From: Bryobacteraceae bacterium
Lineage (GTDB): Bacteria; Acidobacteriota; Terriglobia; Bryobacterales; Bryobacteraceae
Direction: 5' to 3'
NCBI GenBank assembly: GCA_036269625.1
Contig: DATBEF010000140.1
Location: 188-64,187 of the forward strand
Length of the DNA stretch: 64,000 nucleotides
Under the pieces are notes generated by a model. The model was not told the origin of the DNA. It saw nothing but the letters and a program-made list of their open reading frames with translations, and did not search any database. The stretch's first letter is position 1. Each line of letters opens with the position of its first letter. Both the position numbers and the translations under genes were made by a program. This document shows, piece by piece, positions 35,504 to 58,526 of this stretch.

Positions 35504-37560
35504 GATACTGCCCGCGGCGCTCCTGAAGCGCAAGGCCGTGGTCTATGTGCGTCAGTCCACGCAAACACAGGTGCAAACGAACCTGGAGAGTCAGCGTCGG
35601 CAGTACGATCTGGTTGAAGTGGCGCGGCGGCATGGCTTCGTCGACATTGAAGTAATTGACGATGATCTTGGGCGTTCTGCGAGTGGCTCTGTGGACAGAC
35701 CGGGCTTCGAGCGGCTCGTCGCTTCCGTTTGCGCTGGAGATGTCGGCGCAGTGCTGTGCTTCGATGCGTCGCGGTTGTCGCGCAACGGTCGAGACTGGCA
35801 TCATCTGCTCGAGTTGTGTGGCCTGGTCCAAGCGCGAGTGATCGACGCGGAGGGTGTGTATGACCCGTGTCGTCCGAACGATCGCCTGCTGCTCGGTATG
35901 AAGGGCAGCATCAGCGAGTTCGAACTCTTCGTGATCCGTTCGCGCATGCTCGATGCCAAACACGGCAAGGCCCAGCGCGGTGAACTGCGTATGAGCGTGC
36001 CGATCGGCTACATCTGGCATCGCGAGATCGGTCTGGGTTTCGACCCGGACCTGCGTGTGCAAGAAGCAGTCCGCGTGATCTTTGCGCGCTTCCGTCAGCA
36101 CGGTAGCGCACGCCAAGTATTGTTGTCGTTGGCCGCTGAACAGATGCACTTTCCACGCCCCTCCGATGGCAAGAAGTTGGTGAGAGTTGAGTGGACGCCG
36201 ATCTGCTATCGCAGCGTCATCTCGATCTTGAAGAACCCGTTCTACGCCGGTGCCTATGCCTACGGCAAGAGCCAGAAGGACACAGTGCTGATCGAGGGGC
36301 GTGCACGTACGACGTATAAGCACCGCAAGCCTATTGACCAGTGGGAGGTTATCATCAAGAACACCACGAAGACTGCATCGAGTGGAGCGAGTTCGAACGC
36401 AATCAAAAGTTACTCGCGGCGAACGCCTACGGGAAGGCCGACGGAATCAAATCCGGACGCGGTGGTCGCTCCTTGTTACCTGGACTTCTGCTGTGCGGAC
36501 GCTGTGGCCGTCGACTCAAGGTGGTCTACTCAGGTCGGGCTCCCGGTCAGCCGGTGTACCGTTGCGAGCTTCCCAACCAGCTGTTCGGTCGCCCACGATG
36601 TATTATCTTCGGAGCAAAGCGCGTAGATGCTGCCGTTGCACGCGAGTTGCTGCGTGCTGTGGAGCCGATGGCTATTGAGGCGGCACTTGAAGCCGAGCGC
36701 AGGCATATGGACCTACAAGGCGAGCGACGACGCATCGTAGAGTTGGAACTGCAGCAGGCCCACTACGAGGCCTCGCTTGCAGAACGCCGCTACGCCGCCT
36801 GCGATCCTGGTAATCGGCTTATCGCTGCACAGCTTAAAAAAACTGGGAAGCAGCACTGCAGCGTGTACAAGGCTGTGAGGTGCGATTGGCCGCACTTGAG
36901 ACGCCAAGTTCCACCACACCAACACCCAACTTTGTCGGGCTCGCAGACGACCTCGAGGCGGCCTGGAATGCGCCAGGGGTGATCATGCGATCGCGCCAAC
37001 AACTTCTTCGCGCTGATCGCTGAGATCATCGCCGATTACGACCATAGCTTGCGAGAGATCGTCCTCAAGATCCACTGGCGCGGCGGCCAGCATTCTGAAC
37101 TCCGAGTTCCTAAGCCTAAATCCGGAGAACATGGCTGCCGAACTATCGAGGAAGCCGTTGCCGTGATCGGCACCATGGCAACGCGATGGTCGGACGAGGA
37201 CATCGCTGCCACGTTGAACCGCATGGGATTGCCTACCGGCCAGGGTAAAACGTGGACTGCAAACCGAGTCAGCTCTTTACGTCGCGTACGAGGAATAAAA
37301 CGCGTATCGATCGGCCGAGAAGAATGGAGAGTGGCTCACCATGTCGGAAGCCGCCGTGAAACTCGGCGTCTCAAATCATCAGATCCGTCGGCTCATTAAA
37401 ACAAGGCATCCTCGCCGCCGATCAGGTCGTTCCCGATGCTCCGTATCAAATCCTAGCGAACGATCTGCTCGATGAGCGCGTCACTACCGCGATCGCACGA
37501 AAAGGCCGTCCGTATCGGCCGAATTCCGAGAAGCAAACCTCCATGTTTTCAAAGACTTGA
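35493..37560 (+). pseudogene. large serine recombinase gene 1, multiply frameshifted
   Basis: Resolvase N-domain KAVVYVRQSTQTQ..SRLSRNGRDWHHLLELC. Recombinase domain and zinc ribbon LLLCGRCGRRLKVVYSG. Coiled coil. C-terminal HTH-like MSEAAVKLGVSNHQIRRLI. The reading must switch frame about 5 times (near 36350, 36838, 37015, 37300, 37400). Confidence 0.85.
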
Positions 37561-42867: not shown

Positions 42868-43083
42868 TCGAAGATATTTCGCACGCCACGTGCATTGCCA
42901 AACCCTGATCATTTCTCGATAAAGCCTCAACAAACAGAATGCCGTCCATCGCCCGTGTGACGACCTCCTGCGTCTTCAATGCAGTTTGGCCCAGGTACCC
43001 CTACGAGACCAGATCTATCAACCTCAACCAGATGTCGCTTGCTGAGGAGGCCCAGTAACTGATATATGCGGCCTAGGCGTGTC
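42868..43083 (-). pseudogene. AAA ATPase (SpoVK/CbxX-like) gene, distal piece
   Basis: TRLGRIYQLLGLLSKRHLVEVDRSGLVG, then a frameshift into GYLGQTALKTQEVVTRAMDGILFVE... It continues the Walker-A piece found on the other side of the IS1595-type gene. Confidence 0.55.
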
Positions 43084-43124
43084 CTGCTTATCCGGTTGTT
43101 TCAGCAAGCCCCAATAGGTAGTGG

Positions 43125-44070
43125 TCAGCCCACGGCGGCCGGTTCGCCCAAGTCGGCTGCACCCCTTATCTCCTCATATTTAGCGGGCTTACGCCAAGTT
43201 CCGAGTCCGAGCAGCGTCTGGAACCCCGCCATCGGCGTCTTTCGCCGATTGTGACGAAATACGAATTCATTCAGGTAAGCCCGAAGTTGATCACGGCTGA
43301 CACCGTGAAAAGTGCCGAGCAGTCACTGCTGGAGATTGCCTATGGCCCGATCCGCCATCGGCACCACGGACTTTGCGCCCTTTCGCAGGTTAGTTCGCAA
43401 CGGCTGGCCGCGAGGCACATGCCGGAAACCGGCCTCTTTCAGTCCAGTGAAGCTCTTCAGTCCGTCGGTGTACACGGTAGACCTGGCGCCACGTTGTCCT
43501 TCAGGAAAGCCAGCAGGGTCTCACTTCTGAAGTCCGGAATCACAGCCATGCGTGCGCGCCCAGTGGTGTTTCTCCCCGCTTCTCCTCGGCCACCAGAACG
43601 AGCGCCGCTTTCCGCCCCTGGAGCTGGCGGCTTCCCCGCAAGCCGGCCTGGGTGCCTCCCGCCCAGGTTTCGTTCACTTCCACGTCGCCCCGCAGTGGGT
43701 CCCGTTTGAGATTGATCATGGCCCGCCGGAAGTTGTGCAGCATCATCCAAGCTGTCTCGTAGCGGGCAACGCCAGTTGGCGCTGCAGAAGCAAGGCAGAG
43801 AGCCCGCGCTTATCGGTTGTCATCAGGTACGCGGCCCAAAACCAAACCGTCAGTGGCGTTTTCGTATTGTGCAGAATCGTCCCGGCAGTCAGAGACACCT
43901 GGTACCGACAGCCTGCACACTGCCATCGCCTGAGGTTCGCCAATTCATAAGCGTGCCGATTCCCACATTTTGGACACGCAAACTCATCTGGCCAGCGACA
44001 CGCGGCCAGATACTGTCGGCATGCCTCTTCGATGGCAAACTTTGATTGAAACTCCCGCAGCGTCTCGTCT
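43125..44070 (-). pseudogene. IS1595-family (ISXO2-like) transposase gene, degenerate
   Basis: Zinc ribbon ACRQYLAACRWPDEFACPKCGN..WQCAGCRYQVSLTAGTILHNTK. DDE part RARMAVIPDFRSETLLAFLKDNVAPG / VYTDGLKSFTGL..LRAYLNEFVFRHNRR. About 3 frameshifts, one TGA for Trp near 43324, and no start codon. Confidence 0.8.
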
Positions 44071-44074
44071 TACC

Positions 44075-44550
44075 CGTTCCCGAATTGCCAGCGAACACCA
44101 AGTGGCGTGAAATACCCGAGACATGCATCCCGTTCGCTGCGCGAAGTCGCTGAACCCGCATCAGATTAGTAAGGGAGTGCACTCTCGCTTCACCCCTATA
44201 AGCCCGATCAGGTTGTCTAGATCGGAAGGGGCGGACTTTAGGACAAGCGTTTCATTCGCTTCCACAATTTCGGGCGTAGAGTTCTGGGCTTGGTTGTTTG
44301 CGCGTGACGGCGCGATGTGACTGTCCTGAGACTATCTTCGAACGGGTTCGATGTGCGCGAACACACCATCGAGTTTCTTCGGAGAAGCCGCGAGCGCGGT
44401 CAAAACACCGTCGATTGTCGCTGCCTCAGCAGGAGTAATTGGACCATCGCTCTCCGCGACGATATCAAGCAAGCGCCTGAATACAGTAAGTGTTTCCTAG
44501 AACAGGTTTGATCCCCTAGTGCGATCAAATTCAGCCGCGGCCGCCATCAT
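44075..44550 (-). pseudogene. AAA ATPase (SpoVK/CbxX-like) gene, proximal piece with helical N-domain
   Basis: MMAAAAEFDRT..(TAG)..LLDIVAESDGPITPAEAATIDGVLTAL..(TAG)..SDLDNLIGLIGVKRE (frameshift) HSLTNLMRVQRLRAANGMHVSGISRHLVFAGNSGTGKT, ending exactly at the IS1595-type gene. Confidence 0.6.
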
Positions 44551-44934
44551 CCAACAAATTGGGGATGGGGATTCTCTTGGATGAAAGGAACGATTTGACT
44601 GGTGAGGTCGCCTGCAAGCCGCGCTCCCCCAGATGATCTGCCATCGCGTGTGATGAGAGCGTACGCCTCCGCCTCGATAGGGTCAACGTATATCTTCCCC
44701 GCGATCAAGACGTGCCACAGCGATAGCTCCAGTACGAATTGTAATTCTTCTCTGAAGCTGGCGAAGCACCTCGAATTGGCCCTGGGAATATGCCCGAAAC
44801 TCAACTCGCAGATTCTGTGTCAACTCCGGTTGAAAATTCCCCAGCCGTGGGGCAGGTGGTGGTTTACAGTTCCGCTGGTAGAGGGAACATAGAATGCAGC
44901 CGGTGAAGGGGAGGCAGGCACTGCAGGAGTGCAA
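44547..44934 (-). pseudogene. unassigned decayed ORF, ATGA-coupled to the AAA ATPase gene
   Basis: Two overlapping frames (..PELTQNLRVEFRAYSQGQFEVLRQLQ.. and ..EELQFVLELSLWHVLIAGKIYVDPIEAEAYALITRDG..). Stop TGA overlaps the AAA start ATG. Confidence 0.25.
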
Positions 44935-45062
44935 CCTGCCGAGGAATAGCTGGCTGCAAACTCATCAAGGCGATGAGACTCCGGGGGGAGCCGAAAGGGG
45001 GCGTCGCCCCGAATCGTAAAAGCTGAACATCGGATTGATAGATTTGCCCATGCCTCAAAAAC

Positions 45063-45370
45063 TCACGCCGAATGGCTACGTTTGCTGCGATTGTTCGGAG
45101 CGGCAGCAATCGGTTCTGCGGGCTGCGCTTCCGGCGTAGGAAGCAGTCCGGCTTTACGTCGCTGTTTGAGCCGATAACTTTCTCCGCGGATGTTCACCGT
45201 CGTGGAGTGATGCAGCCGGCGATCGAGGATCGCGGTCGCGATGATCGGGTCGCCGAAGATCGAACCCCACTCGCCATAGCTTTTGTTGGAAGTCAGGAGG
45301 ATGCTGCCTCTTTCATAACGGGCGCTGGCTATTTTCCGATTCGTGGGATGAGAGCCGTACTCGTTTACAG
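45063..45370 (-). pseudogene. istB: second IS21-family istB C-terminal remnant
   Basis: ASARYERGSILLTSNKSYGEWGSIFGDPIIATAILDRRLHHSTTVNIRGESYRLKQRRKAG. The sequence differs from the istB at 38786. Confidence 0.8.
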
Positions 45371-45377
45371 CTAAGCA

Positions 45378-46071
45378 TCCACACTGGTTGTAAAGACACC
45401 ACGCCATACCATCCTGATCGATACGGCTACAGGAACGATAAAAAGCGGCTGTTTATTCCGGCGCTTGACCACCTGCACACGCCCTATCTTGAGAGACTGA
45501 AGTGCTTGGGCGTGATGCCGACCAGGTGGATTTTGTCCTATCGACGCATCTGCACGTCGATCATGTTGGATGGAACACACGATGGGTGAACAACCAATGG
45601 ACGCCAACGTTTCCGAATGCCCGACACTTCATGCCGCAACGTGAGCAGAAGTATTTCGCATCGCCGGAGAATCGGAACGACCCGCGATACTGCGTCTATG
45701 AAGACAGTGTCCTGCCCTTCATTGAATCAAGACGGGCAGAGCTTGTGATAGCCGATAGCACTGAGATCATCGAGGGATTGCGCTTTCTCTCGACGCCGGG
45801 ACATAGTCTCGACCACATGTCGATTGTTCTGGAATCGCGTGGTGAGAAAGCTATCTTCGGTGGCGATGTGATGCACCATCCATTACAGGTCTATTTCCCT
45901 CGCCTCAATTCCATCTATTGTGAATCGGCCCATCCGGCGCGTAGCTCGCGCCGCTTCGTGTTGGAGTATGCAGCAGAATATCAGGCAACTTATTTCAGCA
46001 CGCATTTTCCAGAAAGCTCTGTAGGACGGATCAGCCGTTCCGCCAAGGCATTCAAGTGGTCCTATCTCTGA
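45378..46071 (+). pseudogene. MBL-fold metallohydrolase gene, 5-prime truncated and frameshifted
   Basis: STLVVKTPRHTILIDTATG / NDKKRLFIPALDHLHTPYLERLKCLGVMP / DQVDFVLSTHLHVDHVGWN lie in three different frames. The rest (45502..46071) is intact. Confidence 0.75.
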
Positions 46072-46235
46072 AAAAGGAAAACGCGAAAAAGATGAATCTC
46101 AGTGAAATTAGCTAATTGGATCGAACAGCCAGGGTTTACGAATCCTTCAGGCCAAGTTTCCGGATAAGTCCCGACTGACGGGCGATTCGGAAGTTGGCGC
46201 GGACTGACGGACGACGCAGACGATGGTCCGCCACT

Positions 46236-47231
46236 TTAGGCGTTGACAAGCTCCATCATGCCAGGGGAGTAGCGATCGCCAGCTATGGCACCTTTGGGAG
46301 CCACCTCGTCGAGCAGATTGAGCTCCTGCGCCGTCAGCTCGACGTCCACCGAACGCACATTTTCCTGTAATCGTTGGCGGCTGCTGGTGCCGGGGATGGG
46401 AATAATGTCCTCGCGTTGGGCGAGTACCCAGGCGAGAGCGAGCTGCGCGGGAGTAACTCCTTTTTCGCGAGCCAGCTCCGCGATGCGATCCGCAATGGCG
46501 AGATTCCGTTGGAACTGTTCTCCCTGGAAACGTGGATTGGTTCGACGCCAGTCGTTCGGGGCGAGATCATCGATACTGCGAAAGCGGGCGCCGAGAAAGC
46601 CACGGCCGAGCGGACTGTATGCCACGAGCGAGATTCCGAGCTCGCTCAAAGTGGGTAGCAAGTCGGCTTCGGGATCGCGCGTAAACAGAGAGTATTCGGT
46701 TTGTACAGCACTAATTGGATGCACTTGATGCGCGCGGCGGACGGTGGCGGCAGATGCCTCAGATAATCCGATGTACCGCACTTTCCCAGCCCGAACGAGA
46801 TCGGCCATCGCGCCGATGGTCTCTTCAATTGGGTTTCGAGGATCCACGCGGTGCAGGTAATACAGATCGATCACGTCGACTCCGAGGCGCTGCAAGGAGA
46901 GATCGCAACAGTAGCGGGCATTTTCAGGACTACCGTCGACAGTCCGTTCTGGGGCAGATGCGGGACCGGGCACGATTCCGAATTTAGTTGCGAGAACGAC
47001 GCCCTCACGCCGGCCCTGGAGAGCCTTGCCAACCTTTATCTCGGAGTCGCCATAAATGTTCGCGGTATCGAGGAAATTGACACCCAGGTCGAGCGCACGA
47101 TGAACAAGCGCGATCGCATCGGCTTCGCTTTGCGCACTGCTGGTGTACACATCGTCGATGCCAATGCTCATGCAACCGAGTCCAACCGCGGAGATTTTGA
47201 GGCCACTTCGGCCGAGTAAGCGGGTTTTCAT
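46236..47231 (-). CDS. aldo/keto reductase
   Basis: [22 protein letters not shown] start at ATG 47231; [13 protein letters not shown] and [14 protein letters not shown] are present. The ORF-track extension to 47495 is non-homologous. Confidence 0.88.
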
Positions 47232-47448
47232 TTTCGATCCGATTCGATAGATGCGACCGGGACTAGTTCGGTCTCCACTGTTTATTGAGCATAGCCCCAT
47301 GGCTGTGCGCCGTGCACATTGGGTTTTCGCGGTTCTCCCAAATGCCAAAGCCGCATTTTGGTTGTTGGAAATCCACGAACCGCAGTGGGAGTTGATATGC
47401 TTCTTAGCTGAAATTAGCGGCCCATGCGCCGCGAAGGAGAACAAATCG

Positions 47449-48870
47449 ATGTCCAATAAACGAGAAGTACTAGTCGGCAGACGAGGTCTCCTCAAAACAT
47501 CGGCCGCAATGATTGGTGGAGCAATGTTTGGAGGCGCGCTCCTCGGCCGTAAAGCCGACGCCGACCCCGAGCCAAGAGTTCAGAACGTCAATACGAATTC
47601 CAGTCCGTCAAAATTGAAAATTACAGATTTGCGGATTGCCACGGTTCGTAAGCCCGGACCAAGCCCTTGCACGATTGTCCGGATCGATACCAATCAGGGC
47701 GTCTATGGCTTGGGCGAAGTTCGAGACCTTTCCAGCCCAACTTATGCGCTCTTCCTGAAGAGCCGGATTATCGGTGAAAACCCGCTGAATATTACTTTTC
47801 TCTTTGAAAAGATCAAACAATTTGGCGGTGATTCGCGCCAGGCCGGCGGAGTAGTCTCGATCGAAGAAGCGCTTTGGGACATCGCGGGTAAAGTTTATGG
47901 TGTGCCGATTTACCAGATGTTAGGCGGAAAATTTCGCGACCGCGTACGAATCTATGCCGACACAGAAGAGTCGAAAGACATCAAAATCTACGCGCAGCGT
48001 ATGAAGGCCCGCAAGGAAGAAATGGGATTGACCTGGTTGAAGATGGACCTGGGGGTCAACATGGTCTCAGATACTGCTGGCACGCTGACTGCGCCTTCCG
48101 GGCAGAGTAAATGGGAATCCTACAGCCTTCCTCATCCATTCCTGGCGAATGAAGTGACCGACAAAGGTATTGAGATGCTGGTTGCCTACGTCGCCGCAAT
48201 CCGCGAGGCGGTCGGTATGGAGATCCCGCTTTCGATGGATCACCTCGGTCATTTGGGAGTCAATTCGATCATCCGATTAGGCAAAGCGTATGAGCCGTAC
48301 AATCTCTCCTGGATGGAAGATGTCGTTCCGTGGCAGTACACCGAACTGTTACAGCACATAACAAACGAGAGCCCCACGCCTATACTCACGGGCGAAGATA
48401 TATACCTGAAGGAAGGCTTCACGAACTTGTGCAAGAATCACGCGGTGAGCAAAATTCATCCGGATATTTCTACGTCCGGAGGCATCCTGGAGACGCATAA
48501 AATCGGCGACATGGCGATGGAATATGGGGTTCCGATGGCGATGCACTATGCGGGGCTTCCGATTGGCGCCTACGCGAGCGTACACTGCGCCGCCGCTACG
48601 GAGAATTTTCTAGCTTGCGAAAATCACTCGCTGGACGTTCCGTGGTGGCAGGACCTGGTGGAAGGCGTGGACAAACCGATCATCGACAAAGGGTTCATTG
48701 CCGTGCCCGACAAGCCCGGGCTAGGCGTAACGCTGAACGACGAGGCTGTGCGCGCGCACCTGGTTCCAGGCACGGGATTCTTCGAACCGACGCCTCAATG
48801 GGATAAGGAGCATTCGGTGGATCGACTTTGGAGCATGGCGCCGCCGCGGACGCCCCAGCAGGTAGGTTAA
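47449..48870 (+). CDS. enolase-superfamily (mandelate racemase/muconate lactonizing family) protein with Tat-type signal
   Basis: ATG 47449 with AAGGAG upstream. Signal [38 protein letters not shown]. Core [34 protein letters not shown]. Metal-ligand-like SMDHLGH, WMED, TGED. Confidence 0.85.
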
Positions 48871-48889
48871 TGAGCAACGGAGAAATTGG

Positions 48890-49828
48890 ATGAGAAAGTT
48901 TCTTTTGACCGTCTTAGCAGCGAGTATCGCGTTCGCAGCCGCGCCAGCCTTCGCCCAAGTGAAGATGACGAGGGAACAGATGATGTTCTATACGTCGGAT
49001 TGGAAGGGCGACCGTTTTCCCGATGGACGTCCGAAGGTGGCGGACGATTTGCTGAAGCGCGCTCTCGATATCTCAATCGAGGATGCCTGGGATTATCTCC
49101 GCGAAGAAGGCTACAGAAATCAGTTTGAGGGCGGCTGGCAAGCTCTTCACATTGAGAAGCCCTTCGCCGGCCGCGCACTTACCGCGCAGTACATGCCGAT
49201 CCGTCCCGATATGGCTAGGGCGATCGCGGCCGAGGGCAAGGCAGAGGGGCGCGTTAGCGGGAATAATAGTTGGCCGATCAATGAACTCCAGATTGGCGAC
49301 GTCTATGTGGCCGATGGCTTTGGCAAGATCATCGAAGGCACCTTGATCGGGTCTAACCTCGGAAACGGAATTGCCGCGCATACTCATACCGGATTTGTAT
49401 TCGATGCCGGGATCAGAGATCAGGAAGAGAACCGTGAAATCCCGAATTTCAACGGCTTCTATCGCGGTTATGATCCCTCCGCATGGGCCCAGATGGAGTT
49501 AACAGCGATCAACGCGCCTATCCGTATCGGACGCGCTATCGTGCTACCGGGAGATCTAGTGCTGGCGAAGACGGATGGAGTTCTCTTCATACCGGCCATC
49601 CTTGCGGAGGGGGCCGTCAGTTCGGCGGAATTTACGAATCTGAAAGACGCGTTCAACTTTGAATTGAATCGTCAAGGGAAGAACGGCGCTGAATTTGAGG
49701 GCGGCTGGACGGCGGCAAAATACGCGGCGTTCTCGCAATGGATCAACGCTCATCCTGAGATGTTGAAGATGCCCCGCCCTGAATTTGACGCGCTATTGCA
49801 AAACGCGACCAAGCATCCTGACCGGTGA
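48890..49828 (+). CDS. RraA-fold / HMG-CHA aldolase-like protein with Sec signal peptide
   Basis: Signal MRKFLLTVLAASIAFAAAPAFAQ. Core GDVYVADGFGKIIEGTLIGSNLGNGIAAHTHTGFVFDAGIRDQEE..PIRIGRAIVLPGDLVLAKTDGVLFIP. Confidence 0.8.
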   Translation: MRKFLLTVLAASIAFAAAPAFAQVKMTREQMMFYTSDWKGDRFPDGRPKVADDLLKRALDISIEDAWDYLREEGYRNQFEGGWQALHIEKPFAGRALTAQYMPIRPDMARAIAAEGKAEGRVSGNNSWPINELQIGDVYVADGFGKIIEGTLIGSNLGNGIAAHTHTGFVFDAGIRDQEENREIPNFNGFYRGYDPSAWAQMELTAINAPIRIGRAIVLPGDLVLAKTDGVLFIPAILAEGAVSSAEFTNLKDAFNFELNRQGKNGAEFEGGWTAAKYAAFSQWINAHPEMLKMPRPEFDALLQNATKHPDR

Positions 49829-50923
49829 TTATGAGCGCGAATCACTTCCGGTGGTTGCGGCTTGTAGCATGGCCTTTGCGTAACCGGTGTTATACGCGAA
49901 ACCGGCATAGCCGCCTCCACCGGGATAGTACGGCTTGAATCCCGGACGCTCTCTATCTGCGTCCAGCGCTCGCGGATGTTCCGGATAGAGAGTGCGGCTA
50001 TACTTCTGGCGGACGAGTTCTTTCATCACGGCGAACATGTTGATTTGCCCTTCGTCGATGAAAACCTCCGTGTATTCTTCATACGGCACCCGGACCCGGA
50101 CGTTCCGGAAGTGAACGTGGTTGATGCAATCCCGCTCGCCAAAATATCTGCAGACTTCAACCGGATTGTGGCCCATCTCGCGCGTCACACCGCAATCGAA
50201 GGTAATACCGTTGGCCGGACTCTTGACAATATCGACTAAACGCTTCCATCCCTCCACAGTCCCCATGATCTGCCCGGAACCGCGGCTGATGGGCGCAGGA
50301 GGATCATTCGGGTGAAGCGCGAGACGCACGCCGGATTGTTCCGCCACGGGTATCACAGCCTTCAGGAAATAAGTCACGTTTCGCCACATCTCATCGAGCG
50401 AATGGGCGCCTTCGGACTCTAGCGGAGGAAGATTCTTGACTCTCCCGTAGTCGAACGACGTCAAGCCCGCTCCTCCTCTGCCGGTCTCCTCGTAGTAACC
50501 TTCGACAGCCCGATGCGCGTAGAAGTTGTACTCGATGACTGGTAAGCCAGCTCGGCCTGCGGCGCGAATGGAGCTGCAGATTTTATCGATCTCTTCATCC
50601 CTGCCGGGCTGCCCATAAAGCGTCTTCGGGAATCCGCTGATCATCATATTGAACAGAGTCAAGCCGCCGCTCTTCAGTTGGTCGATGTGCGATTTGATTT
50701 CGGCTTCTTCCCACGGAATGCGGGGACTGCCCATGACGACGTAGTCCACGCCCAGTTGTTTCACACGGCGCATTCCGGCTTCGTCGAGAGTTCCCGCCGC
50801 CAGACTGCCCCCGCCAATTTCCAGGCAGATTTTCGGCAGGCCATCACCTTTCTGCGCGTCTGCGGCCCGAAGGGCGAGGACCGAAGCGCCTGCCGCTTGC
50901 ATCAGGGTTCTGCGAGAAATCAT
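49829..50923 (-). CDS. UxuA-family (mannonate dehydratase-like) protein with Tat-type signal
   Basis: ATG 50923. Signal MISRRTLMQAAGASVLALRAADAQ. Core FLKAVIPVAEQSGVRLALHPNDPPAP..NHVHFRNV..LYPEHPR, as in UxuA. Confidence 0.8.
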   Translation of the reverse strand: MISRRTLMQAAGASVLALRAADAQKGDGLPKICLEIGGGSLAAGTLDEAGMRRVKQLGVDYVVMGSPRIPWEEAEIKSHIDQLKSGGLTLFNMMISGFPKTLYGQPGRDEEIDKICSSIRAAGRAGLPVIEYNFYAHRAVEGYYEETGRGGAGLTSFDYGRVKNLPPLESEGAHSLDEMWRNVTYFLKAVIPVAEQSGVRLALHPNDPPAPISRGSGQIMGTVEGWKRLVDIVKSPANGITFDCGVTREMGHNPVEVCRYFGERDCINHVHFRNVRVRVPYEEYTEVFIDEGQINMFAVMKELVRQKYSRTLYPEHPRALDADRERPGFKPYYPGGGGYAGFAYNTGYAKAMLQAATTGSDSRS

Positions 50924-51056
50924 AAGTAATATTATCGAAGCCTTAAGCCAAACATACGGGATCGGAGTCACCTTTCATTCGTGCAAGATGCTGATACCGA
51001 GCGGGAAGCGTAGCGACCGCAGGCTGGACGAGGCAAACTCGCTTAAGTAAACGGCA

Positions 51057-52469
51057 TTGAGCAAACGCCTCTCTCCTTGCCTTCCCGGATTGGACTGTGA
51101 TAATCTCCGTGCCCAGAGCTTGTTAAACAAATCAATCAGTTCCGGGAGGCTCAGCCGCAGAGCCTTTTTCAATTCCGCGGCAGCTCCGCTTTTAGCCGCA
51201 CCTCTACTCACCACGAAGCTGCGAGGCATGGCGATCCCGAAGATCAGGGACGTTTCTGTGATCACGACACAACCGGCAGGCGTTCGGCTGGTGGTCGTGA
51301 AAATTGTCACCGACCAGGATGGTCTTTACGGCTATGGGTGCGCTACCTTCACGCAACGCGCCGACTTAGTCGTCGAAGCGGTGAATCGTTATTTAAAACC
51401 GTTCCTCATCGGCAGACCTACGGACGCCATTGAAGACCTCTGGCAGGCGATGTACAACTCGTCTTACTGGCGCAACGGTCCAGTGTTGAACAACGCGATC
51501 AGCGGCGTTGACCAGGCCTTATGGGACATAAAAGGCCGCCAGGCGGGCATGCCTGTGTACGAATTGCTCGGTGGTAAATGCCGCCGCGGCGCCATGATTT
51601 ACTCGCACGCATCAGGGCGGGAGATTTCCGAAACCATCGATCAGGCCCACAAAATCATGGCCCAGGGGATCAAGGTCGTTCGGTTGCAGGTCGGGGTTCC
51701 TGGCATGGCGGCCTATGGCGCGGGACAGACCGGGCGCCGCCTGTCTTCGGAGTCCGAACCGCAGGACGAGATCTTTGAGCCCGAGCCCTATGTCCGCCGT
51801 ACGCTCGAACTCTTCGAAGCGGGACGCAAGAATCTGGGGCCGGAGATTGGACTGCTGCACGACGTACATGAGCGTGTCCCGCCTCGCCTCGCCGTCCAGT
51901 TCGCAAAGGATATGGAGCAGTTCCGCCTGTTCTATCTGGAGGACGCGCTCTCGCCGGAGAACATCGATTACTTCAAGCAGATTCGCGCCAATTGCACCAC
52001 GCCATTGGCGATGGGAGAACTTTTCAATAATCCCCATGAATGGAACAATCTGATTCGCGAAAGCCTAATCGACTTTATTCGAGTTCATGTTAGCCAGGCG
52101 GGTGGGTTGACTCCATGCCGCAAAATGGCTGCCATTGCGGAAGCTTTCCAGGTACGAACCGCCTGGCACGGTCCAGGTGACGTTTCGCCTATTGGCCACT
52201 GCGCGAACGTCACGCTCGATCTGGTCTGCTACAACTTCGGCATCCAGGAATGGACGTTTCCGAATGAGCGTTTGCAGGAAGTGTTTGATGGCTACCCGGT
52301 CGTGAAAGACGGTTATGCCTACGCCAATGAGAAGCCGGGTTGGGGCGTTGAGATTGATGAAAAAGCCGCCGCCAAATACCCGATCGGTAGCGAAACAGGC
52401 CCCCGCAAAGCCCTGAATGGCGGCTGGGGGGTGGTGCGTCGTGCGGACGGCACCGTAATTAATCAGTGA
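51057..52469 (+). CDS. ManD-type enolase-superfamily dehydratase homologue, possible Tat-type N-extension
   Basis: MAIPKIRDVSVITTQPAGVRLVVVKIVTDQDGLYGYGCATF..YWRNGPVLNNAISGVDQALWDIKGRQAGMPVYELLGG. The upstream in-frame stretch GRLSRRAFFNSAAAPLLAAPLL is reachable only from TTG starts (51057, 51090, 51120), so the start is uncertain. Confidence 0.85.
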   Translation: MSKRLSPCLPGLDCDNLRAQSLLNKSISSGRLSRRAFFNSAAAPLLAAPLLTTKLRGMAIPKIRDVSVITTQPAGVRLVVVKIVTDQDGLYGYGCATFTQRADLVVEAVNRYLKPFLIGRPTDAIEDLWQAMYNSSYWRNGPVLNNAISGVDQALWDIKGRQAGMPVYELLGGKCRRGAMIYSHASGREISETIDQAHKIMAQGIKVVRLQVGVPGMAAYGAGQTGRRLSSESEPQDEIFEPEPYVRRTLELFEAGRKNLGPEIGLLHDVHERVPPRLAVQFAKDMEQFRLFYLEDALSPENIDYFKQIRANCTTPLAMGELFNNPHEWNNLIRESLIDFIRVHVSQAGGLTPCRKMAAIAEAFQVRTAWHGPGDVSPIGHCANVTLDLVCYNFGIQEWTFPNERLQEVFDGYPVVKDGYAYANEKPGWGVEIDEKAAAKYPIGSETGPRKALNGGWGVVRRADGTVINQ

Positions 52470-52518
52470 CGATCATAAGTTACTAACTCTTACTAACAGC
52501 AGTTATCAAGGAGGTTGT

Positions 52519-55500
52519 ATGACCCCGTGGCGGATGCGCGAGTTCCTCAAAGCACCCATCGTTCTAATCATGGCGATGACCCTCGGCAGCGTTGGCTGGG
52601 CACAGTCTGGCCGTGGAAATATCTCGGGCGCCGTTCACGACAGTACCGGCGCCGCGATACCGGGCGCGAAAGTTACCGTCATCAACTCCGCTACAAACGT
52701 GGCGTACGATCTCGCCACCAACGAAACGGGAGACTATACAGCCGCCGATGTGCCTGTCGGTACGTATACGGTTCGTGTGGAGAAACAGGGCTTCAGCCAA
52801 TCGGAAATCAGCGGGATAACCGTAAACTCAGCCGCCAGCGTCCGAGCGGATGTGACCATGCAACTTGGGCAGTCGCGCCAGACGATCGAGGTTCAAGCTG
52901 CTGCTCTGCAGGTGAACTCAGAAGACTCCCAAATGGCCGTGACCGTGAATCAGACCTTAGTGAACGAGCTTCCGTTGGTGGTTGCCGGAACAGTCCGGAG
53001 CCCGTTCGACCTCGCGGCACTTACGCCGGAATCAAAAAACACCGGAAGCGCGGAAGGGTTTGCATTAGGCGGCGGACAAGCGGACAGTTATCAGGCAACG
53101 CTTGACGGTGTTTCTATTGACACCTCCCGAGCGCTTCAAAAAAACTGGGTGACCTCGAACGCGCCATCTGTCGAAGCCATCACCGAGTTCACCGTTGACA
53201 CCAACGGATTCAAAGCCGAGTTCGGCCATGCCGGAGGCGGCGTGATGATGTTCGTCGCCAAATCAGGCACCAATCAGCTCCACGGCTCGGCCTATGAATT
53301 TATGCGTAATACCGATTTCGATGCGAACGACTGGTTCAGCAATAGAGCGGGCAAGGCGCGCCAGATCTATAAGCAGAACGATTTCGGATTCACAGTCGGC
53401 GCTCCGGTTTATATTCCAAAGGTCTACCACGGCAGAAACAAAACCTTCTTCTTTACTTCCTACGAAGGCTTCCGGAATCGCAATGGCGCAACGAACGCAA
53501 CAGCAACTGTGCCTACGCCGGAAATGTATAACGGCGATTTCAGTAAGTGGGTAGGTTCGAACGGAGCCGTAATCCCGATCTACAATCCAACAACGCAGGT
53601 CCAGACTGCCAACCGCCCCACGCGCGTGGTTTTTCCCGGAAACCAAATTCCGGCTTCAATGTTCAACGCGACGTCCGCTCAAGCTCTCAAGCTGTTTCAG
53701 ACCAGCGGAGTTCTGGCGCCGAATAACGGTGCGGCGCCCGGAACTCTCGGGTATGTCAACAATAACTACATCATCAGCAGTGGAACCAACGTTCAGCCGG
53801 TGAACAAGTTTAGCGTCAAGGGCGACCATCTGTTTAACGACAAGCAACGGATCTCAGGGTATTACGGCTACGATCGTGAAGCAACTACCGCTGGTCCGGA
53901 GGGGCCGGCCACGCTTCCAGGCCTCTACTCGAATTACAACGATGTGCACCAGAGCTCAGACGTGCTGCGGTTCAGTTGGGATTGGACGATGAGTCCCACT
54001 AAATTTAATCACTTCTACGCGGGCGGAAATAACTGGCGGCAGGACCACAAACCCTCGCAGGAGTATACCGGTAACTGGCAAAGCAAATTCTGTTTGGGCA
54101 ATGTCCCTAACTGCAATGACAATCTGGTGAATCTTTTCTCCGGCGGTAACGGAGATACTTATTCGACTTGGGGCGGCCAGGCGGATAACGGTTCGGAAAA
54201 CACGGTCTATTCGTACAACGATGACTTTACCTGGATAAGGGGAGCGCACTCGATCAAGTTTGGCGGGCAGTGGCAGATTAATCACTACAACGGGTTTGGA
54301 CGCCAATGCGAAGCCGGATGCGTAGGCTTCAGCTACACGGAGACCGGCGTGCCGGGTCTGACGGACCCAACTCAGGGCGGCAATGCGTTTGCATCGTTCC
54401 TACTGGGGTATGCCGATTCCGGCCAGATTGACACGCCGCGCTTCATCGGCCAGCAGTTCTCGTATTTCGCCGGTTTCGCGCAGGACGATTGGCGTGTAAA
54501 CCAGAAGTTGGTGCTGAATCTGGGCGTGCGATGGGAGACGAACTTGCCGCCGACCGGCTTGGACGATCGGTGGAGCGATTTTTCGCCGACTACTCCAAAC
54601 CCAGCCGCGGGCGGAATTCCGGGAGCCGTGATCTTCGCTGGTTCAGGCCCTGGCCGCGTCGGCTCGAGAAGTCTTGTGAATGGTTATTACCATGCGTTTG
54701 GGCCGCATTTGGGGTTTGCTTACTCGTATGATCAGAAAACCGTAATTCGAGGCTCATACGCGCGTTCGTATGGGCCTCTGATGGCTGTCGGCGGCTCGGC
54801 CCACAATATGGGCTTCACGCTTACGGACAGCATTTCGAACCCCAACAATGGCGTCCAGCCCTTATTTATTCTGAACCAGGGATTTCCCGCTTATAACGTG
54901 CCGCCGTTCATTAATCCGTCGGTCTCGAATGGCACGACCGTTTCATGGTGGCAAGGAGCCGAGACCACGCATCCTCCGACCATGGATAATTTCAACTTCT
55001 CCATTCAACGGCAACTCAGTTCGAACATGCTGGTGGAAATCGCGTATAACGGCGTAATCGGGTCTCACTTACAAGCGCAGTTACTCGATTACAACCAGGA
55101 CAATCCGGCGTTGCTTACCGCTTTCGGAAGCATTCAACAAAGCACCAACGTTTTGAATAGCCAGGTAGGATCTACGTTGGCCAATCAGTACGGGATCGTT
55201 GCTCCGTATCCAGGATTCAAAGGGACGGTGAAACAGGCCCTGCGGCCGTTTCCGCAGTACACGCTTATCGACACTTACGGCGGCCAGGGCGATCACAGCG
55301 GCCATTCCACCTACCACTCGGGGATGGTGCGCTTTGAGAAGCGCTATGGCGCCGGGCTGACGCTACAGACGTCCTATGTGTTCTCTAAGCTGTTGACGAA
55401 TGCCGATAGCTATTGGGGAAATGCGATTGGAAGTAATTTGAATAATTCCGGTGGAGGCGGCGGCTGCTGCCTCGCGGCCGACCAATACAATCGCGGACTC

Positions 55501-56139
55501 GAGAAATCAATCGGCGAATTTGACGTCACCCACGATTTCAAAGCCGGATTTGTGTACGACATTCCAGTCGGAAAGGGCAGACGCTATCTAACCCATGGGC
55601 CGGCGTCGTGGATCCTGGGCAACTGGGGAGTTAATGGCGTGCTGACGTACGCGAGCGGCCTGCCGATCGCACTTACGTCTTCCTACGGTCTTCCGCTGTA
55701 CGGTGCGACGTCAGGCCGCAGCATACCTTACATTACTTCTTACACCGGATGGCAGCCGAATTGGAAAGGGAGTTTCGATCCGACCGTCGATACATTCCTG
55801 GTTCCATATTGCAGTTCGCCATCCACGTCTTGCACCGGACCGTTCCCCAACCAGGGCGGCTCATCGCCAGATGCCGGTTTCGGTAATGCGACGCGCTATA
55901 ACCCCAAGGTCCGCCAGTTTCCAAACTTGAATGAGAACCTTTCCTTGGCTCGCATATTTCCGATCAAAGAATCATTCCGCATGGAATTTCGCGCCGAAGC
56001 GTTCAACGTTTTCAACCGGGTTCGCTTTGGGGCGGGCGACCTCAATCTCCAGGATGCGAATTTCGGGCATCTGACCAGCAGCGCCGATCTATTGAACACG
56101 CCTCGCCAATTGCAACTAGCCTTGAAAGCGTATTTCTAG
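52519..56139 (+). CDS. TonB-dependent receptor with N-terminal carboxypeptidase-regulatory-like domain
   Basis: Signal peptide. GNISGAVHDSTGAAIPGAKVTVINSATNVAYDLATNETGDYTAADVPVGTYTVRVEKQGF. 1206 aa. C-terminal LQLALKAYF. Confidence 0.9.
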   Translation: MTPWRMREFLKAPIVLIMAMTLGSVGWAQSGRGNISGAVHDSTGAAIPGAKVTVINSATNVAYDLATNETGDYTAADVPVGTYTVRVEKQGFSQSEISGITVNSAASVRADVTMQLGQSRQTIEVQAAALQVNSEDSQMAVTVNQTLVNELPLVVAGTVRSPFDLAALTPESKNTGSAEGFALGGGQADSYQATLDGVSIDTSRALQKNWVTSNAPSVEAITEFTVDTNGFKAEFGHAGGGVMMFVAKSGTNQLHGSAYEFMRNTDFDANDWFSNRAGKARQIYKQNDFGFTVGAPVYIPKVYHGRNKTFFFTSYEGFRNRNGATNATATVPTPEMYNGDFSKWVGSNGAVIPIYNPTTQVQTANRPTRVVFPGNQIPASMFNATSAQALKLFQTSGVLAPNNGAAPGTLGYVNNNYIISSGTNVQPVNKFSVKGDHLFNDKQRISGYYGYDREATTAGPEGPATLPGLYSNYNDVHQSSDVLRFSWDWTMSPTKFNHFYAGGNNWRQDHKPSQEYTGNWQSKFCLGNVPNCNDNLVNLFSGGNGDTYSTWGGQADNGSENTVYSYNDDFTWIRGAHSIKFGGQWQINHYNGFGRQCEAGCVGFSYTETGVPGLTDPTQGGNAFASFLLGYADSGQIDTPRFIGQQFSYFAGFAQDDWRVNQKLVLNLGVRWETNLPPTGLDDRWSDFSPTTPNPAAGGIPGAVIFAGSGPGRVGSRSLVNGYYHAFGPHLGFAYSYDQKTVIRGSYARSYGPLMAVGGSAHNMGFTLTDSISNPNNGVQPLFILNQGFPAYNVPPFINPSVSNGTTVSWWQGAETTHPPTMDNFNFSIQRQLSSNMLVEIAYNGVIGSHLQAQLLDYNQDNPALLTAFGSIQQSTNVLNSQVGSTLANQYGIVAPYPGFKGTVKQALRPFPQYTLIDTYGGQGDHSGHSTYHSGMVRFEKRYGAGLTLQTSYVFSKLLTNADSYWGNAIGSNLNNSGGGGGCCLAADQYNRGLEKSIGEFDVTHDFKAGFVYDIPVGKGRRYLTHGPASWILGNWGVNGVLTYASGLPIALTSSYGLPLYGATSGRSIPYITSYTGWQPNWKGSFDPTVDTFLVPYCSSPSTSCTGPFPNQGGSSPDAGFGNATRYNPKVRQFPNLNENLSLARIFPIKESFRMEFRAEAFNVFNRVRFGAGDLNLQDANFGHLTSSADLLNTPRQLQLALKAYF

Positions 56140-57236
56140 GCGCCCGCCTCCCCGATCCACTCCCGGCTCGCCCTACCCAGTTCCGGGCAGCCTACCAGGC
56201 ACATCGTCATCTCCAGTTCCGATCGCAGGATCTCCAGCACCCGCGCGATCCCTAATTCGCCGCCCACGGCCAAACCATACAGGTACGGCCGCCCGATACA
56301 AACCGCCGCCGCGCCCATCGCGATCGCTTTGAACACATCCGTCCCGCGCCGCACTCCTCCATCCAGCAGCAGCGTCGTCCGGCCGCCCACCCGTTCCACG
56401 ATTCGCGGAAAAGCATCCAACGTCGCCGTAACCGTGTCGATCGTCCGCCCTCCATGATTCGACACAATCACGCCATCGCAGCCGCAGGCCACCGCCCGCT
56501 CGGCGTCGGCAGGGTGCAACACGCCCTTCACCAGCAACGGCGTCTTCACAAACGATCGCAGCCATTCTAGATCCGCCCACGTCGCGCTCGATGACCGCAG
56601 CATCGAATAGATGCTCCTCCCAAACGGCCGATCGGGAGAAGCCGCCAGGCCGCCCTCTAAATCCGCCAGGTTTACGCGCTGCACTCCCGGCGGTAGCACG
56701 AATCCCGCCCGCAATTCGCGATCCCGCGGCCCATTCGACGGCACATCGACTGTCACGCAGATCGCCTCGCACCCTGCCCTCTCCGCGCGCTCCACCAGTT
56801 CCCGCGTCACTCCCCGGTCTCGATGAATATAAAGCTGGAACCACATCGGCCGCGTCGCCACCGCCGCCATTTCTTCAATCGAGGTCGTTGCAAACGCAGC
56901 TGCGATCAGCGTGGCTTCTCCCAAATTCGCTCCACGCACGGTCGCCGCTTCTCCATCGTCGTGAAACAGCTTGTGGTACCCGGTGGGCGCGAGCAAGATC
57001 GGGTGAGCATGCCGCCGCCCAAACAGCGTGACGGAAGTATCGGTCCGGCTCACATCCACCAGCACGCGCGGTTCGAGTCTCGTACGCCGGAATGCTGCTC
57101 GATTCTCAGCGGCCGTTACTTCATCGCCCGCTGCGCCCGTCACGAACTCGTACGCCCGATGCGTTAAGTGTGACTTCGCCAAAGCCTCGAAATCATCTAA
57201 AGTTTGCACCGCCTCGAGCTGAGGCTGTTCGAGCAT
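56136..57236 (-). CDS. FMN-dependent alpha-hydroxy-acid dehydrogenase/oxidase (LldD/glycolate-oxidase family)
   Basis: AYEFVTGAAGDEVT, PILLAPTG and VIVSNHGGRTIDT motifs are present; 366 aa. Confidence 0.88.
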   Translation of the reverse strand: MLEQPQLEAVQTLDDFEALAKSHLTHRAYEFVTGAAGDEVTAAENRAAFRRTRLEPRVLVDVSRTDTSVTLFGRRHAHPILLAPTGYHKLFHDDGEAATVRGANLGEATLIAAAFATTSIEEMAAVATRPMWFQLYIHRDRGVTRELVERAERAGCEAICVTVDVPSNGPRDRELRAGFVLPPGVQRVNLADLEGGLAASPDRPFGRSIYSMLRSSSATWADLEWLRSFVKTPLLVKGVLHPADAERAVACGCDGVIVSNHGGRTIDTVTATLDAFPRIVERVGGRTTLLLDGGVRRGTDVFKAIAMGAAAVCIGRPYLYGLAVGGELGIARVLEILRSELEMTMCLVGCPELGRASREWIGEAGA

Positions 57237-57242
57237 CTTACG

Positions 57243-58526
57243 TTACGCCAACACCGGCTCTTCCACACGAGCATAGACATACGGTCCCTCGGGAATCACC
57301 GCCACGTTCGCCCGGGCGGGGAGCCCGTCCAGAAACGCCGCAATCGCTTCCTCCGGCCGGTTATAGGCGCGTCCACCCAATCCGGCGCGTAAGTCCTCGG
57401 GCAGCCCAGGCACATAGAAAAAGACCTGATACTTCTCGCCCGCTAACGCCAGCTTTTCGATCTGCCACTGGTCCACCACCACCGGCGCTCGCCAAATCTG
57501 CTCCAGCAATTGCCGGTAACTGTGAAATTCCCGCAGCTTTTCCGCAAATTCCGGCGCACCCGCGCCTTCCCCGCACTCCGCCACCAACAGAATTCGCCCG
57601 CCCGGCTTCAAAATGTGCTGCGCCGCCGTCACGCCTTTGATCGCTTGATAGAACGTCAAATCCAGCGGATAGCCCGCCGCCGTCGTCAACACCCCGTCGG
57701 CCGGTTCCGGAAGCCGCTCCAAAAGCGCCTCGCTCACAAATCGCACACCCTCCGCGTGCGCCTTCACCGGGTCGCCCGCAAACACGCCCGCAATCGCCCG
57801 CGTCCGTGTTAATGCCGTGTCCAGCATGAAATCATGCCGCGCCATCCGCGCGATTTCAAGCAACTCCTGATGCAGCGGATTATCCGCAACCGAGCCCTCA
57901 ATCGCCTTCGGCTCCCGCATAAACTTCGGGCTGTGCAGCACCTTAATCGTCTCCTGCGCCGCCAAACCCGGAGCAATCAACTTGCGGCCGCCTGAAAATC
58001 CCAGCATCAAATGCTGTTCGATGAATCCAAGCGTGATGTGCAAATCGGCCGCCATAAACCGCTCATCGATATGCACCGGCGTACCTCGGCTCGTTACGCC
58101 CAAATAACGGTGCTCGCTCAACTCCCTCGCGTGATGATTCACGATGCAGTATCGCGACGCGATCTCCGGCCCCACAATCCGTAGAATCTCGTCTTCCGTC
58201 GCAGGCCGATGCAGGCCAGTCGCAATAAGGATCGTCACGTCCTTCGCGGCAATCCCAGCCTCGTGCAGTCGCGCCAGCAATGGCGGAAGCGTAACTGCAT
58301 TGGGAGCCGGTCGCGTAATATCACAAACCGAGATCGCCGCCGTCTTCTTGCCACGCGCCAATTCCCGCAACGGCGCACAGCCGATCGGCCCATCCAGTGC
58401 TTCGCCCAGCGCCTTCGTCTCATCCGCCAGGGGAGCCGCCGACTTCGCCTCCAGCACGCGATACGCGTAACCATCCGGCAAATCCAGCGTCAACCCGTCT
58501 TTGCCAAACGCGACCTTCAGTTCCAT
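57243..58526 (-). CDS. larA: LarA-family nickel-pincer-dependent 2-hydroxyacid racemase/epimerase homologue
   Basis: DITRPAPN, ATGLHRPATEDE, VNHHARE and GFIEQHLMLGFSGGRKLIAPG (DUF2088/LarA core) are present; 427 aa. Lies 6 nt upstream of the FMN dehydrogenase gene. Confidence 0.82.
   Translation of the reverse strand: MELKVAFGKDGLTLDLPDGYAYRVLEAKSAAPLADETKALGEALDGPIGCAPLRELARGKKTAAISVCDITRPAPNAVTLPPLLARLHEAGIAAKDVTILIATGLHRPATEDEILRIVGPEIASRYCIVNHHARELSEHRYLGVTSRGTPVHIDERFMAADLHITLGFIEQHLMLGFSGGRKLIAPGLAAQETIKVLHSPKFMREPKAIEGSVADNPLHQELLEIARMARHDFMLDTALTRTRAIAGVFAGDPVKAHAEGVRFVSEALLERLPEPADGVLTTAAGYPLDLTFYQAIKGVTAAQHILKPGGRILLVAECGEGAGAPEFAEKLREFHSYRQLLEQIWRAPVVVDQWQIEKLALAGEKYQVFFYVPGLPEDLRAGLGGRAYNRPEEAIAAFLDGLPARANVAVIPEGPYVYARVEEPVLA

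Follow-up and report, generated by a model that had tools for sequence, protein, structure and literature searches.

Gene content of the locus

The locus described here occupies positions 47449 to 56139 of a 64,000 nucleotide (nt) stretch of DNA, hereafter the window, from a metagenome-assembled genome (MAG) of the Bryobacteraceae, and holds five genes, A to E (Table 1). Four of them belong to enzyme families of acid-sugar catabolism, and in each of these an export-type segment can be read in frame ahead of the conserved core; the fifth encodes a receptor of the outer membrane. A preliminary description of this DNA had placed the five genes at these coordinates and with these N-termini, all of which were verified, and Pfam agrees with the families it had named. 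A protein identical to D (P0271, 100%) is encoded on a 66.5 kb contig from a Bryobacteraceae MAG, and a metagenome contig from the Joint Genome Institute (JGI) carries the same locus.

Table 1. Genes, leader segments and intergenic region of the locus (window coordinates)
Feature	Positions	Strand	Remarks
A, enolase-superfamily (MR/MLE) dehydratase-like	47449..48870	+	473 residues; ATG start, AAGGAG 8 nt upstream
A leader, residues 1-38	47449..47562	+	twin-arginine signal; GRRGLLK, mildly hydrophobic run, A-D-A cleavage site, then DPEP
B, RraA-like protein	48890..49828	+	312 residues; 19 nt downstream of A (A-B operon)
B leader, residues 1-22	48890..48955	+	Sec-type signal; MRKFLLTVLAASIAFAAAPAFA then QVKM
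C, UxuA-like TIM-barrel protein	49829..50923	-	364 residues; convergent with B, abutting
C leader, residues 1-23	50855..50923	-	twin-arginine signal; MISRRTLMQAAGASVLALRAADA then QKGD
C/D intergenic region, divergent	50924..51119	.	one promoter-like site at 51077-51104 (+), from a consensus scan only
D, ManD-subgroup enolase-superfamily dehydratase	51120..52469	+	start uncertain: TTG 51120 (or 51090/51057) with leader, or ATG 51228 without
D leader	51120..51227	+	(L)LNKSISSGRLSRRAFFNSAAAPLLAAPLLTTKLRG then MAIPKIRD; RR motif, short proline-containing hydrophobic run, L-R-G junction
E, TonB-dependent-receptor-type outer-membrane protein	52519..56139	+	1206 residues; 50 nt after D (D-E operon)

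Proteins A and D both carry the MR_MLE_N and MR_MLE_C domains of the enolase superfamily (Pfam). The nearest solved structure to A, 2qq6 (E 4e-61), is of uncharacterised function, and the best NCBIfam equivalog, galactonate dehydratase, is matched at 184 against a cut-off of 311; K198-x-D200, D264/H265, E290, E316, D339 and H366 are invariant in 46 homologues (54-92% identity). D matches the PDB entries 3tw9, 4ihc and 3t6c at E 1e-128, is ~60% identical to 3tw9, and has D269, H271, E295, E321 and H371 invariant in an alignment of its homologues; the Asp/Glu/Glu metal ligands and the histidine of the HDVHER motif are present. D falls below the cut-offs of NF043051 (ManD equivalog; 418.8 vs. 550) and NF011654 (GalD-family subfamily; 408.9 vs. 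430), and is by similarity a member of the ManD subgroup but no assured D-mannonate dehydratase.

C matches Pfam UxuA at 148 bits, above the cut-off of that model, as well as AP_endonuc_2. Its closest structure is the UxuA 3ban (E 1e-26, mostly over the C-terminal half), and it stays below the uxuA equivalogs TIGR00695 (94.6 vs. 199.55) and NF003027 (120.6 vs. 191), where the match covers residues 177-355 only. H204, C244, H271, R273-N274 and E315-H316 are invariant in 104 homologues, and the residues of the HP(D/N)DPP, C-G, H-x-R-N and (D/E)-H motifs align with 3ban, 1tz9 and 4eac; the conserved histidines, cysteine and acidic residues presumably have the roles that they play in UxuA structures.

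B has an RraA-like domain (Pfam, 59.5 bits) and matches the structures 5x15 (E 4e-16) and HMG/CHA aldolase 3noj (E 4e-7), with a score of 45 bits against the HMG/CHA aldolase equivalog (TIGR02798, ligK/PcmE), whose cut-off of 304.5 it does not reach. R176-D177 does not vary among 91 homologues, 94% of which keep E180, and the segment G-I-R176-D177-Q-E-E180 aligns with G-V-R-D of 3noj; we take an R-D-x-x-E/D motif to be the mark of an RraA-fold class II pyruvate aldolase/oxaloacetate decarboxylase. An AlphaFold model of B built from 25 sequences (81-92% identity) was too poor for a fold search, with a mean predicted local distance difference test score of 41.7 and a predicted template modelling score of 0.35. 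Since every NCBIfam equivalog cut-off is missed by A, B, C and D, the names used here denote families and not proven activities, and the labels 'UxuA-type' and 'ManD-type' of the preliminary description hold at the family level only.

E combines CarboxypepD_reg with OMP_b-brl_4 (Pfam; barrel PF25183, 622 bits) behind a Sec leader of 28 residues (52519-52602, hydropathy 2.5) that ends in GWA/Q. The Pfam Plug model found no match in residues 100-300, and a single-sequence PDB search with E returned no relative; a profile built from 14 E-like proteins does recover a plug, with matches to those of YncD, PqqU and Cir (E 9e-12 to 3e-10). By these profile matches E is a TonB-receptor-type protein with a plug and a large beta-barrel.

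Export-type leaders on the enzymes

Solved homologues of these enzymes begin at the catalytic core, and the N-terminal segments of A to D are therefore additions: residue 5 of 2qq6 aligns with residue 55 of A, and residue 3 of 2qjj with residue 63 of D, counted from TTG 51057. In A, C and D the segment holds a twin-arginine (RR) motif of the S/T-R-R-x-F-L-K type (GRRGLLK, SRRTLMQ and SRRAFFN, respectively), the layout in C being MISRRTLMQ...ADA/QK. A and C end in A-D-A, a small-x-small cleavage site; D has an L-R-G junction only. The leader of B is built differently, of MRK, FLLTVLAASIAFAAAP and AFA/Q, and has no RR. Signals for twin-arginine translocation (Tat) are less hydrophobic than Sec signals, and the leaders divide along this line: the maximum hydropathy over ten residues in B is 2.5, as in the leader of E, and the RR leaders reach 1.4-1.9 overall (1.4-1.5 in A and C). 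Tat export of A, C and D would fit obligate Mg/Mn-binding oligomers that are exported already folded.

These leaders are kept among homologues. The RR motif of A is present in 114 of its 120 closest database homologues, the remaining six being truncated gene calls, in all 38 A-type genes of the metagenome loci, down to 58% identity, and in seven of eight genes from genomes, the eighth being interrupted by a contig end. That of C occurs in 81 of 81 genes from 80 species-representative genomes and in 27 of 27 metagenome copies, and the hydrophobic leader of B, with its junction of A-x-A or A-x-S followed by QVKM, in 81 of 82 metagenome loci and all 10 genome loci. The leader of A also exceeds the cut-off of TIGR01409 (TAT_signal_seq), at 18.8 vs. 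16.7 bits. The two arginines are encoded by 14 different codon pairs in A, 22 in C and 6 in D, including switches between CGN and AGR, and it follows that the leader is translated and that both arginines are under selection. Database searches with each family return thousands of proteins, mainly from soil and peat metagenomes. Thus the leaders of A, B and C are conserved and under selection, the catalytic motifs behind them are intact, and the genes recur together (see below). The preliminary description had read export-type extensions on all four enzymes; the orthologue alignments bear this out for A, B and C, where the leaders are conserved in frame, and for D at the family level, the start in this genome depending on a TTG codon.

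To our knowledge, all characterised UxuA, ManD/GalD-type dehydratases and RraA-fold pyruvate aldolases are cytoplasmic enzymes of uronate or aldonate catabolism, which might suggest that the N-terminal segments are not export signals but gene-calling extensions, membrane anchors or regulatory peptides on enzymes that stay in the cytoplasm. We regard this as highly improbable: a tripartite signal build with A-x-A junctions is kept in hundreds of sequences although the leader sequence drifts, the arginines are retained through synonymous codon replacement, A passes the Tat model, and neighbouring genes likewise encode exported or membrane proteins.

Two observations concern the region around the leader of A. 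Past the predicted cleavage site, mature A retains a highly conserved segment (47563-47610) that the solved cytoplasmic homologues are without, and the JGI gene call for A (47299-48870) is extended upstream, to 523 residues.

The uncertain start of D

Of the four leaders that of D is the least certain, as export here hinges on a TTG start and the leader is atypical. The segment SGRLSRRAFFNSAAAPLLAAPLLTTKLRG lies in frame upstream of MAIPKIRD, and a homologous in-frame leader (xSRRxFL..AAAPLA..PLLttKLRGM) that starts with ATG is found in at least 87 of 120 D homologues of 80-89% identity, an example from a close homologue being MKRYSSPGSSRRHFLASAAAPLALTPLLTTKLRGM followed by SIPKIKD. More distant members of the clade (39-66% identity) have textbook Tat leaders, e.g. 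MKRRELLKSIGGAGLLGLASPLLRSQ, and 15 of the 16 D-type genes in the metagenome loci have the RR motif. A crude neighbour-joining tree of ManD representatives, which is not reliable, suggests at least two Tat-bearing groups.

Several features of the gene in the window speak against its export. The in-frame starts upstream of the leader are TTG only (51057, 51090 and 51120), with neither ATG nor GTG among them and no visible Shine-Dalgarno sequence; both public gene calls place the start downstream of the leader, JGI at ATG 51228 (413 residues) and the National Center for Biotechnology Information (NCBI) beyond that, at a GTG within the conserved core (403 residues); and the hidden Markov models for Tat signals (TIGR01409 and Pfam TAT_signal) give no match to it. 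It may be, then, that D is translated from ATG 51228, beginning with MAIPKIRD, and is cytoplasmic in this genome, the RR segment being an untranslated relic of an ancestral leader. Leader loss may indeed occur, for in the 91% identical orthologue of L024 (6750-6900, minus strand) the Tat-like leader MLSPIKRRQFLAVAAAPLLKPRA is exactly one nucleotide out of frame with MSIPKIKD. The shift sits in a GC-rich run of a MAG, and reflects either an assembly indel or a genuine loss of the leader. Against a relic stand the 57 open codons upstream of ATG 51228, the nearly residue-for-residue agreement of the segment with the orthologue consensus SRRxFL..AAAPL..PLLTTKLRGM, the ATG-started leaders of the close homologues, and the position of the only GAGG, 1 nt ahead of ATG 51228 and too near to serve as its ribosome-binding site. 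On balance a cytoplasmic D seems rather unlikely, and D is probably exported in this genome as well. Automatic start-site calls strip the leader from some of these genes, and the feature is to that extent hidden in public annotation.

Recurrent gene neighbourhoods

Neighbourhoods were compared in 80 species-representative genomes, anchored on C, and in metagenome contigs, anchored on B. Of the B-anchored loci, 65 are flanked by 3 kb or more, and in 57 of these one or more genes of type A, C or D are present; A-type genes occur in 41, C-type in 29, D-type in 18, and all three in 9. The order of the genes is variable, the recurrent arrangements being 'D B MFS C A DUF362' (7 loci), 'A B MFS' (at least 5), 'D B C PQQ' (4) and 'HpaI DUF1080 B TBDR C PQQ' (4), where MFS stands for a major facilitator superfamily permease, PQQ for a pyrroloquinoline quinone dehydrogenase homologue and TBDR for a TonB-dependent receptor. 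The same families are kept despite this shuffling, and we therefore suggest that co-location itself is under selection; a functional link between the four enzyme families is supported by these gene orders. Divergent paralogues take part as well, as in L024 (D-A'-B'-C) and the Isosphaeraceae MAG L046 (C-A'-B'). In the C-anchored genomes A-B-C is repeated in the closest relatives only, and nothing is conserved around C save B-like genes (10 loci), the linkage becoming clear once B is the anchor. In L007, the nearest relative of the window, A-B-C and E are present and D is missing, which makes D a variable member.

That the D operon runs into a TonB-dependent receptor, as the preliminary description had noted, recurs in orthologous loci: in five of these (L162-L166) a receptor 82-86% identical to E lies behind the D orthologue, and one of them reads D-TBDR-MFS. 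Two of the five also hold a divergent RraA-like lipoprotein gene. This 244-residue paralogue (L165:7188-7922 and L166:1166-1900), with a lipoprotein-type leader (LLAVFSAAILAG followed by C), is divergent from the D-receptor operon; exported RraA-fold proteins thus come in at least two forms, this one and the B type.

Seventeen loci encode an MFS permease, as a rule immediately downstream of B; its best match is the D-galactonate transporter subfamily TIGR00893 of the anion:cation symporter (ACS) family. The statement of the preliminary description that no inner-membrane transporter is visible therefore applies to the window and not to the wider system, which as a whole has an inner-membrane permease, given that related loci place an ACS-family MFS gene right after B. 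Families of kinases and of KDPG (2-keto-3-deoxy-6-phosphogluconate) aldolases are lacking among the recurrent neighbours, which fits a non-phosphorylative route. Other recurrent neighbours bear export leaders of their own, as read from their N-termini and assigned with Pfam and NCBIfam: homologues of PQQ dehydrogenases ('acido-empty-quinoprotein group A'), DUF1080 3-keto-disaccharide hydrolases, HpcH/HpaI aldolase homologues (Sec-type) and DUF362 proteins (RR). The sister loci with such further leader-bearing enzymes are L122, L113, L146, L156, L112, L134, L152, L107 and L129. Some sister loci include a LytTR response regulator, of which there is none in the window.

C-type genes also occur in settings of their own. 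In one Bryobacterales genome (L053:7636-11095) three of them, 61-70% identical to C, lie in tandem, with an RR leader in both of the two N-termini checked, and are a sign of paralogue expansion. Others, 71-73% identical to acidobacterial ones, are found in the Isosphaeraceae MAGs L045, L046 and L065 and in L027, labelled Alphaproteobacteria; the presence of C-type genes (in L046 the C-A-B trio) in MAGs of other phyla is either the outcome of horizontal transfer or a binning error.

A predicted periplasmic route for acid sugars

We hypothesize that a module widespread in acidobacteria relocates the upper part of acid-sugar catabolism to the periplasm and that the locus represents one form of it, and would give this reading a probability of about 0.6. 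In such a module E would carry over the outer membrane a substrate that is probably either an acid sugar (aldonate or uronate-derived) or a sugar from which periplasmic oxidation makes one. A, C and D would be metal-dependent dehydratases of separate lineages, folded and oligomerised in the cytoplasm and then exported by Tat, each turning its own acid sugar into a 2-keto-3-deoxy acid. B, an RraA-fold protein exported by Sec, would cleave or decarboxylate the common 2-keto-3-deoxy product, and an ACS-family MFS permease of the galactonate/glucarate-transporter type would import what results into the cytoplasm; for this genome, the gene of such a permease has to lie outside the locus. We infer from sequence comparison where A to D are localized, on which substrates they act, what B does and in what order the steps run. 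The preliminary description had already proposed periplasmic processing, and the proposal is backed on every point open to computation, with localization as a prediction.

A number of points weigh against this hypothesis. C is mostly alone in the 80 species genomes, with no A, B or D within 10 kb. Its leader reaches 16.5 bits on Pfam TAT_signal, below the cut-off of 22.7, and there is no TatA-like motif anywhere in the window. The closest solved relative of B is the RraA-type protein 5x15 and not a proven aldolase, and family membership would not fix the substrates of A to D, all equivalog cut-offs being missed. Moreover, an ACS permease could import small acid sugars directly, and periplasmic processing would then have no evident need.

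The enzymes might also be exported and active without serving to obtain carbon from sugar acids. Metal chelates are the classical cargo of TonB-dependent receptors, the plug region in the profile of E is nearest to YncD, PqqU and Cir, quinoprotein homologues recur beside the cluster, and none of the four enzymes reaches an equivalog cut-off, the structure nearest to A having no known function. The enzymes could accordingly destroy carboxylate chelators (of the metal-gluconate or 2-ketogluconate type) and so free metal in the periplasm, or act on other hydroxy-acids, in which case B would not be an aldolase of the 2-keto-3-deoxygluconate type. It seems unlikely, however, in view of the ~60% identity and identical active-site motifs that D shares with structures of the ManD/gluconate-dehydratase type, of a permease of the galactonate/glucarate type, and of recurrent neighbours among which no metal-homeostasis genes are found. 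Still less likely, in our estimation, is that the periplasm is a waypoint for the enzymes and that secretion takes them on to the cell surface, into outer-membrane vesicles or into the medium, where they would act on acid sugars before receptor uptake. Tat and Sec substrates can be passed to type II secretion, and the receptor would then import the products; but neither the window nor the recurrent neighbours contain secretion-system genes or sorting domains, and the cluster couples the enzymes with an inner-membrane permease, an arrangement in keeping with products released in the periplasm.

It is tempting to go beyond a periplasmic upper part and to speculate that soil Acidobacteria and some Planctomycetota have a complete non-phosphorylative sugar-acid pathway in the periplasm, with uptake by a TonB-type receptor, oxidation where quinoprotein homologues are present, dehydration by Tat-exported enzymes of the enolase superfamily and the UxuA-like type, C-C cleavage by exported aldolases of the RraA or HpaI fold, and ACS import of small carboxylates only. 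We put this forward tentatively, as a possibility with the odds against it. If true, it would be an undescribed location for these families, and possibly a major carbon-scavenging route in a phylum that is among the most abundant in soil.

Relation to known systems

The preliminary description knew of no characterised case of this arrangement, and full-text literature searches likewise gave no precedent, with no report of exported or periplasmic acid-sugar dehydratases, nor of acid sugars being dehydrated or cleaved at a C-C bond in the periplasm; Tat, TonB and dehydratases all go unmentioned in a large paper on the comparative genomics of Acidobacteria. The enolase-superfamily work of the Enzyme Function Initiative reportedly assumed soluble cytoplasmic enzymes.

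With UxuA (Escherichia coli and Streptococcus suis; 4eac, 3ban) and the ManD subgroup (Novosphingobium 2qjj; Salmonella 3tw9) the proteins of the locus share folds and aligned metal and catalytic motifs. Those solved relatives are leaderless and start at the catalytic core, whereas A, C and D have RR leaders and fall below the equivalog cut-offs. With HMG/CHA aldolase and active RraA-family proteins (Pseudomonas putida 3noj; Thermus 1j3l), B has in common the RraA-like domain and the G-I-R-D-x-x-E segment, and differs in its Sec leader and in extra N- and C-terminal segments (312 residues in all).

As for the predicted chemistry, the closest parallel may be the glucarate/galactarate route of E. 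coli (GudD, GarD, GarL, GudP/GarP), in which several dehydratases likewise lead to one 2-keto-3-deoxy acid and a metal-dependent class II aldolase; there, as in the sister loci, an ACS-family MFS permease is part of the cluster and no kinase is needed. The Weimberg/Dahms and L-rhamnonate (YfaU aldolase) routes follow the same non-phosphorylative logic, and the UxuA/UxaA pair are likewise converging dehydratases, on the cytoplasmic side of the inner membrane. The glucarate/galactarate, Weimberg/Dahms and L-rhamnonate routes are cytoplasmic and follow uptake, whereas here the enzymes have export signals and the permease comes later in the predicted order. The aldolase candidate in the window is also of the RraA fold and not an HpcH/HpaI protein as in the E. 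coli routes, exported HpcH/HpaI homologues being found in sister loci.

Sugars are also converted before uptake in Pseudomonas and Gluconobacter, by periplasmic oxidation (PQQ glucose dehydrogenase, gluconate dehydrogenase), and the glucose-fructose oxidoreductase of Zymomonas is a sugar enzyme that Tat exports in folded form. In those organisms the periplasmic steps are oxidoreductions, whereas dehydration and C-C cleavage are predicted here, with quinoprotein homologues adjoining the sister clusters. The carbohydrate utilization loci containing TonB-dependent receptors (CUT loci) of Xanthomonas and Caulobacter, and the polysaccharide utilization loci of Bacteroidota, resemble the present one in that a receptor is co-encoded with periplasmic enzymes, an MFS permease being added in sister loci. 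Of the CUT-type parts, the window has the receptor and the enzymes only, and the sister loci add the ACS-family permease. Unlike in CUT and polysaccharide utilization loci, the enzymes are dehydratases of the central-pathway type and an aldolase-like protein, with no glycoside hydrolases or lyases, and the window has neither SusD nor a regulator. Each ingredient taken singly, be it the enzyme families, the routes of export or the loci linked to receptors, is already known; their combination and the predicted periplasmic location are not.

Large, sequence-diverse clades of the UxuA, ManD-type and RraA-fold families thus have conserved export signals and cluster with transporters of the outer and inner membrane. 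If the periplasmic hypothesis is true, any reconstruction of pathways in Acidobacteria, a group dominant in many soils and difficult to cultivate, would have to include a periplasmic compartment in which acid sugars are broken down; the known Tat substrates would be joined by a class of oligomeric, Mg/Mn-dependent enzymes that are non-redox; and of the orphan TonB-type receptors that acidobacterial genomes hold by the hundreds, some would gain a testable function.

Flanking genes and other features of the window

Promoter and terminator scans gave matches at or below shuffle expectation, the count in the C/D intergenic region being no higher than in shuffles. An aldo-keto reductase gene (46236-47240) precedes A. 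After E come two leaderless genes convergent with it, one for an FMN-dependent (flavin mononucleotide) 2-hydroxyacid dehydrogenase (56136-57236), with a 4-nt overlap between its stop and the end of E, and one for a LarA-like nickel-pincer racemase (57243-58526). All three were considered as members of the module and excluded, since they are never found beside it elsewhere.

Just upstream of the locus lie an IS21 IstB fragment (45063-45407) and a truncated open reading frame (ORF) of the metallo-beta-lactamase fold (45502-46071), and the region from 43000 to 46100 has only short, doubtful ORFs before the IstB fragment; the JGI contig has a second IstB fragment further upstream. This stretch resembles the remains of insertion sequences along the border of the cluster. 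Elsewhere in the window, an ORF with a serine-recombinase-like N-terminus (VVYVRQSTQTQ...) at 35493-36626, which a long antisense ORF overlaps, may mark a mobile element, and positions 5444-13225 encode a secreted protein of 2593 residues with dozens of 'ADFNGDGxPD'-type repeats, which by eye look FG-GAP/VCBS-like.

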